From a virus, in the IMG/VR virus record IMGVR_UViG_3300045988_081534: DNA of 64,000 bases. The stretch is one strand, 5' to 3'. The number at the start of each line of letters is the position of its first letter. Position 1 is the first letter of the stretch. The position numbers and the translations under genes are program-made. The notes under the pieces are model-generated. The model searched no databases, was not told the DNA's origin, and saw only the letters and a list, made by a program, of their open reading frames with translations. Shown here in pieces: positions 21,404 to 25,956 of the stretch.

Positions 21404-22129
21404 TTAAGAAAAGAATGGACAAGTTGGCATAGGGGAAATCTTATGTAAATTTCTCTTATGTCTTTGTTCAATGTTTTTATATATCTCATATGGAGGAGTA
21501 ATACCATTAAGTAGGAAATTATCTAGGACATCATAAGAAAATCCTAAATTTTCCTCATCTGTTAAACCGCTTAATCCATCCTCTGGAGGCTTTTCAATGA
21601 AGTTCTTTGGCAATCCAAGCTCAATACCAATTTCTTTAACTTCCGTGGCAGTATAATTAGAGAGAATAGAAAAATCTCCTGCTGCATCTCCAAATTTAGT
21701 AGAATAGCCTACATAGTCTTCACTTCTATTGCAAGTATTCACAACTCTTCCATGACGGCTCGCGGCGATTGCATAAAGGATATTCATTCTTACTCTTGCT
21801 GGAACATTACTTGTAACTTGCGGCTGAATTCTAATATCATTGGGCAAAGACAAGAAAATCTCCTGACAAGCTGAACCAATATTGATGTTGTAATGCTCTG
21901 TAATTTCGAGGTAATCAATTACCTCATTAGAAACATCAATATCATATTGGAATCCCTGTGGCATTTGTACGGCAATTACTCGATTCGGGCCAAGAGCCTT
22001 ACAAAGAAGAGCCGCAGCCACTGTAGAATCTTTGCCGCCAGAAATCCCGATAACAGCTTTACACTCCGGCCCGTTTTTTATGAAATACTCTTTAATCCAA
22101 TCTATAATTTTAGTAACCGTATTAGTCAT
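21404..22129 (-). CDS. nadE: NH3-dependent NAD+ synthetase
   Basis: SGGKDS PP-loop and NadE-like length. Confidence 0.7.
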   Translation of the reverse strand: MTNTVTKIIDWIKEYFIKNGPECKAVIGISGGKDSTVAAALLCKALGPNRVIAVQMPQGFQYDIDVSNEVIDYLEITEHYNINIGSACQEIFLSLPNDIRIQPQVTSNVPARVRMNILYAIAASRHGRVVNTCNRSEDYVGYSTKFGDAAGDFSILSNYTATEVKEIGIELGLPKNFIEKPPEDGLSGLTDEENLGFSYDVLDNFLLNGITPPYEIYKNIEQRHKRNLHKISPMPTCPFFS

Positions 22130-23715
22130 AGAACTTCTCCCATCAATCTCTCTTTAATAGTTTCGATAGTCTCTATGCTCTCCGTACAGAAACTTCCATT
22201 CTTGACTTTAAATTTCATTACATTGTTCTTATATCCAATGGATTCTTCAAGAGTAAGATTTTCTACTAAAGAATAATTGCCATTCTCCTCTTTAAAAATT
22301 GCAACACATCCACGAGGAGACTTTTTCCCAGGGTCGGTTTTAGGCATTTTATAAATCTGAATTTCATCATTGCCGAGGATACAATCTGTAGCTTTAATAG
22401 CATAGCCTCTAGTATCACGAGTTACATACTGATAAGTATAAGCTCCAATTCCAAAACATAGATTGGATACTGAGATATTATTTCTAACACACCAAGAGCA
22501 AACTTTTTCAGTAATCTCTGGAGTAATGGCATCTCCATAAATCATACGAATATAAGAAGGAAGAATAAAATATCCTTTAGTATTCAATTCACCACCAAAA
22601 ATTTCTTTTAGAAGATTTAAAGTTCCTATAAACTCAGGAGAACCGGGTATAGCATCTGGGTCGCCGCAGATAATCTTTACAGGATCTCCGCTATCAGGTC
22701 GAACGGAGAAACATCCATCTCTTGCTGCAATAACATCGTGCAACATAGGAAGAACCTTAGATACAATACCCCAATAATCATATGTATCAGATACATAGGT
22801 CATAGTTCCTGTAGGTTGCACTTCTGTGCAAAGATAATTAATAAAAAGCATTTCTGCAATAAGGTTAATATCCCAATTATCAAAAGCGGCCTTAGAGAAA
22901 AGATAACGCTCAGTTTCAGTTAAATCTCCATTAGTAATCTTCTGCTTCATCCAAGCTACACCTTGTTCAACAACAGAGTGCTCAAGAGAAGGAGTTCCCA
23001 TCATTGGAGGATTATTCTCAAGATCTGCTCCATAGTATTTTTCAAGGAGAAGGTTAGAACCAATGGTTGCAGTTCTATCAAAAGAAAGAGCATGGGCAGC
23101 ACCTGAAATATAACCCGCTTCAAGGCTTGTATGCCCGCGCAGAGAAAAGTCTCCGCACATATGCGGAAGCGCAGACATATCGTCGCAACTAGTCTTGACA
23201 TAAGGCTCAATCAACTTGCGGCGATAAAAAGCGGTAGTGGCAGAAGTCGAGGGGAGCCAGTTATTAGCGCTCCACTGATCTTCGATAAATTGCGGAAGCC
23301 ACGCAAAATTTTGATGATTAGAAAAAATTACATGATCTGGAATCCCGACGGGAAGAAGCGTACCCTCTGGAACTCCCATGATAGAAATAGGTAAATAACC
23401 AAGTTTATGCAATTCTTTAAACTTGGTAAAATCCGCATAATCAGGATGGAAAGTGCTTTTAATTACATGATTCCACTCCTGTTCAAGAAGCTCAACTGAC
23501 TGATCAAAGAACTCTGTCTGCCAAAATTCAAGTAGTTTCTGGATGGTATATTGATGACCAAAGACCACTGTCTTAGGGCAATTTGGATGATGCTTATAAC
23601 TGCGAGCTGTCCAAGTAGAATAAACCATAGAAGCAGACTTCGGCTGCATCTTAATAGCATGACCAACTTTGTAATAGTCAGCGGCAAACATTGGAGCTAC
23701 ATCAAAGAAACTCAT
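22126..23715 (-). CDS. nadV: nicotinamide phosphoribosyltransferase (NAMPT)
   Basis: 529 aa. N-terminus FDVAPMFAADYYKVGH typical of NadV. Confidence 0.75.
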   Translation of the reverse strand: MSFFDVAPMFAADYYKVGHAIKMQPKSASMVYSTWTARSYKHHPNCPKTVVFGHQYTIQKLLEFWQTEFFDQSVELLEQEWNHVIKSTFHPDYADFTKFKELHKLGYLPISIMGVPEGTLLPVGIPDHVIFSNHQNFAWLPQFIEDQWSANNWLPSTSATTAFYRRKLIEPYVKTSCDDMSALPHMCGDFSLRGHTSLEAGYISGAAHALSFDRTATIGSNLLLEKYYGADLENNPPMMGTPSLEHSVVEQGVAWMKQKITNGDLTETERYLFSKAAFDNWDINLIAEMLFINYLCTEVQPTGTMTYVSDTYDYWGIVSKVLPMLHDVIAARDGCFSVRPDSGDPVKIICGDPDAIPGSPEFIGTLNLLKEIFGGELNTKGYFILPSYIRMIYGDAITPEITEKVCSWCVRNNISVSNLCFGIGAYTYQYVTRDTRGYAIKATDCILGNDEIQIYKMPKTDPGKKSPRGCVAIFKEENGNYSLVENLTLEESIGYKNNVMKFKVKNGSFCTESIETIETIKERLMGEVL

Positions 23716-23771
23716 AAAATCTTCCTTTCCTTATTTCTTAAATATATTATATCATATATTTTTATAAAAAT

Positions 23772-23798
23772 AAAAAACCCTCTTTATGAGGGCTTTTA
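23772..23798 (-). terminator. hairpin terminator (ccctc-tttatg-agggc)
   Basis: Inverted repeat with T-run on the minus strand. Confidence 0.5.
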
Positions 23799-24167: not shown

Positions 24168-24613
24168 TTTAACAACCCTCCAACAACAGCACTTACAATC
24201 TTCATATCTGCCTTACCTTTAAGTTCCGCGGAAATAGACCTCATAAGCGCACCACGGTTTGCTTTAACGAGCTCTATACCTTGCGCTCCCGCGATTTCCT
24301 TAACTCTATTTGCTATTGTTTCTTTATCTGTAATTAACTGCGGAGCGTACTGTTTTACAATCTCCATATCTGCTTTATACTGCTTGAGTTTATCTTCATA
24401 AGAGCTTGGACAAGTATCAATCATTTCTTGGACTGTCTTTTGATATTTGATAAGAGTTTCATCAACTAACTGTTCAGTGATTTCAACTCTACCTTTAGAA
24501 GTGATAGATGCTTTTTGACAAGCATCTATCATATCACTTAAAACTCTTTTTGTTGCAGTATCTCGAGCTTTTGTTGCAGCAATCTTTGCTGACTGAAGCA
24601 TTTCAAGCGTCAT
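24164..24613 (-). CDS. GatB/YqeY-domain protein
   Basis: YqeY-like helical pattern, 149 aa. Inference. Confidence 0.4.
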   Translation of the reverse strand: MTLEMLQSAKIAATKARDTATKRVLSDMIDACQKASITSKGRVEITEQLVDETLIKYQKTVQEMIDTCPSSYEDKLKQYKADMEIVKQYAPQLITDKETIANRVKEIAGAQGIELVKANRGALMRSISAELKGKADMKIVSAVVGGLLK

Positions 24614-25419
24614 CGAACAATCTCTACCTTTCTTCTAATATCCCACTCTAGTTTGAAGATACTATCAGTAGTGAAAATTTTCTTTACCACATCTTGATTA
24701 TACATATCTCCTTCAACCATAGTATGCTCAGCGTGGGTAATATATAGATAGATATTCTTTGCTCCGGCTTCCTTTAGTGCATTAGCCGCATGATAGAAGG
24801 TTCCTCCACGAGAGCAAATGTCATCTACAATAAGAACGGTTTTATCTTTAACCAATTCACCATTCATTAACTGCAAACCTAGAATTTTCCCAGTAGACCA
24901 ATCTCTTTTCTTAATCCCAAAAGCATAAGGGAGATTAAGGTCATTGGAATATCTTTTCATAGCTCCTTCATCAGGGAAGAATAGAATCGGCTCTTCCTTC
25001 TCATAATAGCCTACTCTATCAATAGTTTCTTTAATTTCTCCAATGGGATCAAGATCCATAACTCTATCAAGCAAAGCTAAAGACACATTAGAGTGAGCAT
25101 CCCGCACGATAACTTTATTAAAATGGAGGTCGTTAATCACTTTACAAAAATATTTAAGAGTAAATACATCTTCAAGTTTTTGAACTCTATCCATTCTTGC
25201 ATGAGGTATATATGGCATATCAAGCGTTACAGGCAAATCTTCAAAATGCCCTTTTACACAAATCAATGTAAAAAGCTCTGCATCGTTCTCGTAATCCCAA
25301 ACAATAGTATCGTAATCAAAGTAGTTAGGAGGCATATTAATATGAAGTGTGCCATCTGGAAAATGGTTCTGTTCAATCACCTCAGACCAATGACTTTCTG
25401 CATCAAGTAAACTAATCAT
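24610..25419 (-). CDS. prs: ribose-phosphate pyrophosphokinase (PRPP synthetase)
   Basis: PRPP-binding loop VLIVDDICSRGGT. Confidence 0.7.
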   Translation of the reverse strand: MISLLDAESHWSEVIEQNHFPDGTLHINMPPNYFDYDTIVWDYENDAELFTLICVKGHFEDLPVTLDMPYIPHARMDRVQKLEDVFTLKYFCKVINDLHFNKVIVRDAHSNVSLALLDRVMDLDPIGEIKETIDRVGYYEKEEPILFFPDEGAMKRYSNDLNLPYAFGIKKRDWSTGKILGLQLMNGELVKDKTVLIVDDICSRGGTFYHAANALKEAGAKNIYLYITHAEHTMVEGDMYNQDVVKKIFTTDSIFKLEWDIRRKVEIVR

Positions 25420-25422
25420 ATC

Positions 25423-25956
25423 TTAATCCTCCACATCAATCTGTTGAGCTTTAAAGATAGTCAAAGCTGCCTTATGAGACTCTGGTGTCACTCCTGCGCA
25501 CGCATTAGCATGAACTACAATTCTAGTATTCGGCATCGCCGCACGAAGCATAACAGCATTAGCCATCACACAAATATCCGTACAAAAACCACAGATATGA
25601 ATTTCAATATCTCGTTGCATCTCGCCAAAAATATCATATAGTTCATTTACAAGACTTGCGCTTCCGAAAGTATCTTTCTTGTAGAAAGAATATTTATTCC
25701 CAAGGGTAATTAGAATACGAGAATCCATACACCATCCAGGCTCTGTATCAATACAATGCTTAACAGGAAGCTTTTCTCCTTCAAGAGTATTTAGATAATT
25801 GTCTTGGTGAGTATCCATAGTACAGATAATATCATCCCATTTATTATCTTTAATAAGATTTATGATATTCGGAACCGCAGCATTAGCTTCCTGAGTACCG
25901 AGAACTCCGGTAATAAAATCATTTTGTGCATCTACAATAACAAGAAGTTTATACAT
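25423..25956 (-). CDS. isochorismatase-family cysteine hydrolase, nicotinamidase PncA-like
   Basis: VDAQNDF...TMDTH...ICGFCTDICV catalytic D-K-C arrangement. Confidence 0.6.
   Translation of the reverse strand: MYKLLVIVDAQNDFITGVLGTQEANAAVPNIINLIKDNKWDDIICTMDTHQDNYLNTLEGEKLPVKHCIDTEPGWCMDSRILITLGNKYSFYKKDTFGSASLVNELYDIFGEMQRDIEIHICGFCTDICVMANAVMLRAAMPNTRIVVHANACAGVTPESHKAALTIFKAQQIDVED

Follow-up and report, generated by a model that had tools for sequence, protein, structure and literature searches.

What does a phage gain from four genes of nicotinamide adenine dinucleotide (NAD) metabolism that do not add up to any known pathway? The genes lie between positions 21404 and 25956 of the viral record IMGVR_UViG_3300045988_081534, of which we analysed a stretch of 64,000 nucleotides (hereafter the window). 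Its tRNA genes, tmRNA and suppressor tRNA mark the window as part of a gut phage that recodes TAG and is a relative of phAss-1. An earlier note had named the products NadV, NadE, Prs and a PncA-like nicotinamidase, and regarded them as a set that rebuilds NAD+ after its depletion and covers both the amidated and the deamidated routes, NadE and a nicotinamidase standing in for NMNAT. Pfam, NCBIfam and PHROG searches confirmed the four assignments at the superfamily level. The labels NadV and Prs named the right superfamilies but not the right branches: the proteins fall in the Namat and Adps branches, i.e., with the enzymes of the NAD+ reconstitution pathway NARP1. This homology, to a pathway for which such a role has been demonstrated, supports the general idea of an anti-depletion set. 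We estimate at about 0.6 the probability that the four genes encode a deamidated version of NARP1, which would convert ADP-ribose and nicotinamide into NAD+ through nicotinate and nicotinic acid adenine dinucleotide (NaAD).

In NARP1, Adps makes ADP-ribose pyrophosphate (ADPR-PP) from ADP-ribose and ATP, and Namat joins ADPR-PP with nicotinamide to produce NAD+ (Osterman et al., bioRxiv 10.1101/2024.02.11.579819). The structures of these enzymes have been described (PMC12774641, PMC13586617). In the deamidated version, PncA would hydrolyse nicotinamide to nicotinate and ammonia, and Adps would turn ADP-ribose into ADPR-PP with pyrophosphate from ATP. The variant Namat of the window would then join nicotinate and ADPR-PP directly into NaAD, without an adenylyltransferase for nicotinamide mononucleotide (NMN) or nicotinic acid mononucleotide (NaMN), and NadE would amidate NaAD to NAD+ with ATP and ammonia. 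The ammonia released by PncA would be a co-substrate of this glutaminase-less NadE. Both products of NADase effectors, ADP-ribose and nicotinamide, would return to NAD+ at the price of one extra ATP. This route is the simplest pathway using all four enzymes and nothing else. We infer the enzyme activities, the NaAD intermediate and a role in counter-defence from the observed gene content, protein families, active sites and covariation.

The variant Namat matched the Pfam family NAPRTase (3e-23) and PHROG 448 (3e-131). Its best PDB matches were the structures of SPbetaL1 Namat (9w5x and 9w5w, 1e-94), and human NAMPT was matched at 4e-40. All catalytic residues are intact, including the catalytic His246. 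Namat enzymes have a specific adenine clamp with the consensus GSX-phi-X-phi-X-phi-TRD, where X is aromatic (PMC12774641). Residues 424-434 of the window protein read GAYTYQYVTRD: the three X positions are all Tyr, TRD is kept, and the consensus Ser is replaced by Ala. The true NadV proteins of phages ValKK3, LucasX and B23, which co-encode an NMNAT, have GMGGGLLQ or GQGGGLLQ at the position of the clamp, and an Asp at the position that determines specificity. In SPbetaL1 Namat, Arg40 of the clamp loop stacks on the adenine; a Lys is aligned with it in the window protein, in a loop that varies in length and sequence. The protein labelled NadV is thus, from its sequence, better called Namat-like.

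The pocket that holds the base differs from that of the known enzymes. SPbetaL1 Namat binds nicotinamide via Phe189, Arg192, Asp215, Ala242, Arg306, Asp13' and Tyr15'; Asp215 makes a hydrogen bond with the amide, and its replacement by Ala results in approximately 8-fold less NAD+ formation (PMC12774641). The equivalent residue of human NAMPT, Asp219, is said to define substrate specificity (PMC7096376). Two of these contacts are changed in the window protein, which has Ala216 for Asp215 and Ser243 for Ala242. The residues of the pocket that differ from both classical Namat and true NadV are H185, G188, R214, A216, G240, S243 and S337. Human NAMPT with the substitution D219S reportedly takes nicotinic acid.

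We retrieved Namat-like loci from IMG/VR with a Namat query, from IMG/VR with a PncA query, and from one genome per bacterial species with a Namat query. A database of 5.8 billion proteins provided further Namat-like sequences. Alignment columns are given below in the numbering of SPbetaL1 Namat (positions 215 and 242 are 216 and 243 in the window enzyme). Among 214 unique sequences of phages and bacteria, position 215 was Asp or Glu in 81 and Ala or Ser in 133. Position 242 followed this division without exception: it was Ala in 81/81 sequences of the Asp/Glu type and Ser in 133/133 of the Ala/Ser type. Seven columns of the pocket region separate the two groups fully or nearly so, i.e., 184, 187, 213, 239 and 304 in addition to 215 and 242. 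At column 213, Gly is replaced by Asn, Lys or Arg in most Ala/Ser members, and is kept in a subclade of Clostridium chromosomes. The Ala/Ser pocket, as read from the alignment, has lost a negative charge and gained a hydroxyl, and in most members has acquired a basic or polar side chain beside the amide site. Such changes would be expected for the binding of a carboxylate. The signature of the Asp/Glu type is common to true NadV and classical Namat, which makes the Ala/Ser pocket the derived one. When a neighbour-joining tree was rooted on NadV, the two groups came out as sister clades. Separately from the pocket, the window protein has an insertion of about 40 residues right after the catalytic His (residues ~250-290, positions 22846-22966), which is found in the clade of the window and phAss-1 only, and is absent from classical Namat and the other Ala/Ser subclades.

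The type of pocket is associated with gene content. Among loci in which 3.5 kb or more flanked the Namat-like gene on each side, a nicotinamidase was encoded nearby in 103 of the 106 loci of the Ala/Ser type and in none of the 63 of the Asp/Glu type. All phage Ala/Ser loci had PncA, NadE and Adps (59/59 for each) and none had NrtR (0/59). The phage Asp/Glu loci nearly always encoded Adps (49/50), and never PncA, NadE or NrtR (0/50 for each). In bacteria, Ala/Ser loci encoded PncA (44/47), Adps (46/47), NrtR (42/47) and often NadE (26/47). They were chiefly in Clostridium chromosomes, and also in other Bacillota and in Elusimicrobia. The bacterial Asp/Glu loci, from Paenibacillus, Bacillus and Bacteroidota, had the arrangement NrtR - Adps - Asp-type Namat (Adps 13/13, NrtR 11/13), with neither PncA nor NadE (0/13 for both). 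The association is kept when gene order changes, e.g., to Adps-Namat-NadE-PncA in loci L002 and L139, and holds down to about 30% identity. The co-occurrence of the four genes, which recur as a group in over 100 loci of phages and bacteria, is far beyond chance. The loss of Asp strictly parallels the occurrence of PncA and NadE, and this pattern points to one linear deamidated route, not to two parallel ones. The claim that amidated and deamidated routes are both covered, via phosphoribosyl pyrophosphate (PRPP) and NMN, does not fit this loss of Asp with PncA and NadE, the Namat clamp or the type of the Adps-like protein.

This protein, called Prs in the earlier note, matched Pfam Pribosyltran and PHROG 619 (1.3e-66), and fell below the cut-off of the PRPS model TIGR01251 (95.8 vs 113 bits). 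It scored 251 bits with a hidden Markov model (HMM) of our own, based on Adps proteins from classical NARP1 loci, whereas E. coli Prs scored 130 bits with the same HMM. Its pyrophosphate (PP) loop, VDDICSRGGTF, resembles VDDLSSFGGTF in the validated Adps of SPbetaL1; E. coli Prs has VDDMIDTGGTL. The elements RMDR and KxR are shared with Adps. A GIKKRD hairpin has a Lys that is equated, by alignment only, with the catalytic hairpin residue Lys185 of ICP1. The protein stops before the C-terminal segment of PRPS, so that the C-terminal helices are gone, as described for Adps. It is therefore better called Adps-like than PRPS, the activity being a prediction.

The PncA-like protein matched Pfam Isochorismatase (PF00857, 3.6e-19). 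Seven of its ten PDB matches were named nicotinamidase or pyrazinamidase, the others being two chains named "Isochorismatase" and one "Cysteine hydrolase"; the top match was Pyrococcus horikoshii PncA (1ilw). The triad D9/K94/C129 and the metal site D48/H50/H67 are invariant among the homologues from the modules. The last three residues align with those of the metal site of P. horikoshii PncA, which we take to be D52, H54 and H71. The protein is divergent, since it scored only 19.2 bits with the NCBIfam PncA equivalog NF008623, far short of the cut-off of 174. Nicotinamidase function is predicted from the residues of the active site and from the gene context. NadE was identified more easily, with 156.5 bits for TIGR00552 (cut-off 63.65) and 3e-46 for Pfam NAD_synthase. 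It has the P-loop SGGKDS at residues 30-35 and no glutaminase domain. Its PDB matches were all NadE, the best being that of Francisella (3fiu, 113 bits), nearly equalled by that of P. horikoshii (2e18, 108 bits).

Homologues of the PncA-like protein with 45-50% identity are encoded in canonical PncA-PncB-(NMNAT)-NadE phage cassettes. PncA and NadE are also the bookends of the set studied here, and Adps and variant Namat take the place of the middle pair, PncB and NadD. We found canonical Preiss-Handler cassettes on large phage contigs: PncA-PncB-NMNAT-NadE in L117 (6281-9348) and PncA-PncB-NadE in L164 (8625-11198). In L149 (6041-10051), PncA, PncB and NadE are accompanied by an NMNAT that is fused with a Nudix/NrtR-like domain. 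We found no published description of this type of phage cassette. The earlier note had suggested looking for an NMNAT or NadD elsewhere in the genome. In the window, the part of this genome covered here, NMNAT of the NadD, NadR and NadM types gave no match at E<=1, even when TAG read-through was allowed. Nor did the window contain PncB, Macro, NrtR/Nudix or a small DxDDT protein described below, whether or not TAG was read through. Neither NMNAT nor PncB was found in the complete phAss-1 genome or in the 106 Ala/Ser-type modules (0/106).

The neighbours of the related modules concern ADP-ribose. A Macro-domain gene (Pfam Macro; PHROG 335, "phosphatase") follows that of variant Namat in 24 of 76 Ala/Ser-type modules, and the bacterial versions of the module adjoin NrtR, a repressor that ADP-ribose releases from DNA. 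These two observations tie the module to ADP-ribose. In NARP1-AP, a Macro-domain enzyme dephosphorylates ADPR-1''-phosphate (bioRxiv 10.64898/2026.01.28.702374). In 21 of the 76 modules the same slot is occupied by a protein of about 136 residues with a DFDDT motif (L001:9575-9991, L100:11902-12309, L113:12464-12868, and others). It matched PHROG 1238 alone, and had no match in Pfam or PDB. This DxDDT protein and the Macro-domain gene are mutually exclusive in the slot after variant Namat. Eight classical NARP1 loci have the DxDDT protein as well, which may act as a phosphatase in place of Adpp, the Macro-domain enzyme of NARP1-AP.

The main alternative, which we consider unlikely, is that the set boosts the Preiss-Handler pathway from PRPP. 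The Prs-like protein would make PRPP, variant Namat would produce NaMN, the host NadD would convert it to NaAD and NadE would finish the pathway, with PncA feeding it nicotinate. Firmicute hosts have NadD, and the changes in the pocket fit the use of nicotinate equally well in this scheme. Classical Namat can use PRPP in vitro (PMC12774641), and inserts break the clamp helix in many Ala/Ser subclades. Yet the Prs-like protein has the signatures of Adps and scores below the PRPS cut-offs, and the window and Clostridium enzymes have an unbroken clamp motif. Moreover, nadD/NMNAT genes are missing from all 106 modules even though they are frequent in canonical cassettes, and the genes that go with the module encode ADPR-1''-phosphate phosphatase-like Macro-domain proteins and the ADP-ribose-sensing NrtR. 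We give rather low credence to an ordinary NARP1 with a relaxed pocket, operating in parallel with PncA and NadE that would independently feed the deamidated salvage of the host. The D215A mutant of SPbetaL1 Namat does retain about one eighth of the activity with nicotinamide, and the catalytic residues of the window enzyme are intact. But the co-encoded nicotinamidase would destroy the nicotinamide substrate, several positions of the pocket change jointly rather than Asp215 alone, and phages never show the pocket change without PncA, or PncA with the Asp-type pocket. The PncB and NadD that would complete the second route were not found in the window, the phAss-1 genome or the modules. It is very improbable that variant Namat makes NaMN, which the NadE-like protein would convert to NMN as in Francisella, for an adenylyltransferase to complete NAD+. 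The top PDB match of NadE is indeed the Francisella enzyme, but the P. horikoshii one scores nearly the same, and neither the window nor the phAss-1 genome encodes an NMNAT. Homologous NadE genes are found in PncA-PncB-NMNAT-NadE cassettes, where the expected substrate is NaAD, and an NMN synthetase would be pointless beside a direct Nampt.

Several points weigh against a deamidated NARP1. The ability of classical Namat to use PRPP is one of them. Another is that Ser391 of SPbetaL1 Namat, which contacts the phosphate of NMN, corresponds to Ala425 in the window protein. The largest Ala/Ser subclades carry inserts of 9-20 residues in the clamp helix, which makes adenine recognition uncertain in them. 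The Ala/Ser clade is monophyletic; the covariation is therefore one old, maintained event and not many independent ones. Most phage Ala/Ser loci were retrieved with the PncA query and have PncA by construction, although the pattern is no different in the loci retrieved with the Namat query. NadE scores nearly equally with 3fiu and 2e18, and as the Francisella enzyme presumably prefers NaMN, that of the window may prefer either NaAD or NaMN. A role in counter-defence is suggested by analogy with NARP1, and a housekeeping boost of NAD would be equally compatible with the data. Finally, the route has the cost of an extra ATP and of two extra enzymes. Our best guess, a speculative one, is that the route is longer because the module was taken from hosts with deamidated salvage. 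One may also speculate that nicotinate, being charged, leaks from the cell less than nicotinamide.

The deamidated NARP1 can be compared with the known pathways. It shares with NARP1 an Adps-family and a Namat-family enzyme encoded together, the latter with the catalytic His and the motif of the adenine clamp, and is expected to share the ADP-ribose substrate and the NAD+ end product. It differs in the pocket (Asp215 to Ala, Ala242 to Ser, and their neighbours), in the constant presence of PncA and NadE, and in the predicted reaction of the transferase, from nicotinate to NaAD instead of from nicotinamide to NAD+. In the window phage, two unrelated genes also stand between Adps and variant Namat. 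In NARP1-AP, which consists of Adps, Adpp and Namat, the two-gene core is likewise extended by accessory enzymes in the operon. The window has no Macro-domain gene, and its extension is on the pyridine side (PncA, NadE) and not on the side of ADP-ribose. The first and last enzymes are homologous to those of the Preiss-Handler pathway (PncA-PncB-NadD-NadE), and NaAD is the penultimate compound there and, by prediction, here. However, PncB and NadD/NMNAT are replaced by Adps and variant Namat, and the ribose-phosphate-adenylate part would come from ADP-ribose instead of PRPP and ATP. NARP2 (NadV/Nampt and NMNAT, in Vibrio phage KVP40 and its relatives) also uses an enzyme of the NAMPT family and a base derived from nicotinamide. 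Its NadV has a GxGGGLLQ-type segment, Asp at the specificity position and an NMNAT alongside, none of which is true of the window. NARP3 (PnuC and NadR; PMC13464706) is also a phage pathway that restores NAD+, but by uptake, phosphorylation and adenylylation of nicotinamide riboside. We rejected it since its proteins are unrelated and the window, where PnuC was not searched for, has no NadR homologue.

Across Clostridium species, chromosomes commonly carry operons of the type NrtR - Adps-like - PncA - Ala-type Namat - (NadE) (L171, L176-L212), which are apparently not borne by prophages. Such an operon of Clostridium and its relatives, under the control of NrtR, looks like the source of the module. 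In C. acetobutylicum, a described operon is nrtR-pncA-pncB-nadD-nadE (PMC2330246). We see slightly better than even odds for a broader proposal: variant Namat would have a new activity, that of a nicotinate ADP-ribose transferase, and would form with Adps, PncA and NadE an unrecognised NAD+ salvage route that recycles ADP-ribose. This route would be native to Clostridium and other anaerobes, where NrtR controls it, and its capture would have given large gut phages a fourth pathway of NAD+ reconstitution. In the literature we searched, which may not hold every relevant paper, there was no report of this combination of genes, of NaAD in connection with NARP1, or of a "NARP4". The papers on NARP1, NARP1-AP, NARP3 and the structure of Namat mention no NadE, nicotinamidase or phage-encoded nicotinate route; the one on NARP3 (PMC13464706) introduces nicotinic acid and NaAD as general pathway background only.

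If the deamidated NARP1 exists, it would add a reaction to NAD metabolism, the synthesis of deamido-NAD directly from ADPR-PP and nicotinate, and a new branch to the arms race over NAD between phages and bacteria. It would also explain the "prs-pncA-nadV-nadE" operons found beside NrtR in many Clostridium genomes as a means of recycling ADP-ribose without PncB and NadD. The two kinds of Namat can be annotated by a simple rule, Asp/Ala vs Ala/Ser at positions 215/242, and this leads to clear predictions on the single-residue swaps that would switch base specificity. The case would further show that gut phages that are abundant, uncultured and use recoded stop codons invest in NAD+ rebuilding.

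The limits that the earlier note gave for the set coincide exactly with those of open reading frames (ORFs) of the minus strand. The genes are not all adjacent, as had been thought: the region has six head-to-tail ORFs, and genes for a YqeY-like protein and a membrane protein separate the Prs-like gene from the NAMPT-like one (Table 1).

Table 1. Genes, hairpins and RNAs of the window mentioned in the text.
Feature	Positions	Strand	Remarks
PncA-like nicotinamidase, isochorismatase family	25423-25956	minus	177 aa; first gene of the set
Adps-like ADP-ribose pyrophosphokinase (predicted), PRPS fold	24610-25419	minus	269 aa
YqeY/GatB-C-like protein, intervening	24164-24613	minus	149 aa; Pfam YqeY 4e-11, PHROG 1460
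Predicted membrane protein, intervening	23799-24167	minus	122 aa; hydrophobic stretches in translation
Terminator-like hairpin, gap between membrane-protein and variant Namat genes	23773-23797	minus	10-bp stem, then T run
Variant Namat, predicted nicotinate ADP-ribose transferase	22126-23715	minus	529 aa
NadE, NH3-dependent NAD+ synthetase	21404-22129	minus	241 aa; last gene
Terminator-like hairpin directly 3' of NadE	21381-21406	minus	11-bp stem, then T run
PhoH-PIN	15372-16628		
SPFH protein	17540-18436		
P-loop kinase	19148-19681		
Thg1-like tRNA-His guanylyltransferase	19745-20611		
Three metallophosphoesterases	18588-19151, 20592-21323, 30043-30807		
RNA ligase	26807-28087		
RNase T-like exonuclease	28438-29262		
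tRNA array	37242-55674		31 genes
Suppressor tRNA	38301-38376		anticodon CTA
tmRNA	48788-49103		tag peptide DNDYFENYLAA

The first four genes overlap or almost touch at their start and stop codons, as do the last two; the stop of variant Namat and the start of NadE overlap by 4 nt. The gene of variant Namat lies 0.9 kb downstream of the Adps-like gene on the same strand. Since a terminator-like hairpin separates the membrane-protein gene from that of variant Namat, the sequence suggests two transcription units, one from PncA to the membrane protein and one with variant Namat and NadE. The YqeY-like gene, whose start and stop codons overlap those of both neighbours, was seen solely in the clade of modules of the window. 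The membrane-protein gene is kept in close relatives only, and its product matched no family in the Pfam, NCBIfam and PHROG searches. We suspected a homologue of it upstream of PncA in phAss-1, which phmmer did not bear out.

The window has a low G+C content. Its variant Namat is 69% identical to the NAMPT-like protein of phAss-1, a TAG-recoding gut phage of 136 kb with Clostridia as predicted hosts. Near-identical modules are carried by IMG/VR contigs of 104-146 kb. A megablast search of the region against GenBank phages gave zero matches, and relatives were found at the protein level. In a close relative of the window phage, variant Namat is lost through a deletion that leaves an Adps N-terminus joined to a NadE C-terminus (L094:9544-10128). 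At least some phages of the group can therefore do without the module. Four faecal contigs with a related NadE (L087-L090) encode it alone, on short contigs.

An Rfam scan for an NAD riboswitch or other known RNA gave nothing meaningful at 21-27 kb, and elsewhere revealed tRNAs and the tmRNA. Upstream of PncA (25957-26708) there is a 570-nt stretch with no convincing gene and no known RNA by Rfam, followed by a Cys-rich ORF of 59 residues (26529-26708). Rfam also matched a tRNA over 117 nt at 46121-46237 (49.8 bits). ARAGORN did not call it, and a tRNA interrupted by an intron or insertion is a possible explanation. The flanks of the NAD module (15372-21323 and 26807-30807) encode RNA-repair-like proteins and phosphoesterases. 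In one locus of the survey (L134), an RtcB ligase is encoded inside the NAD module itself.

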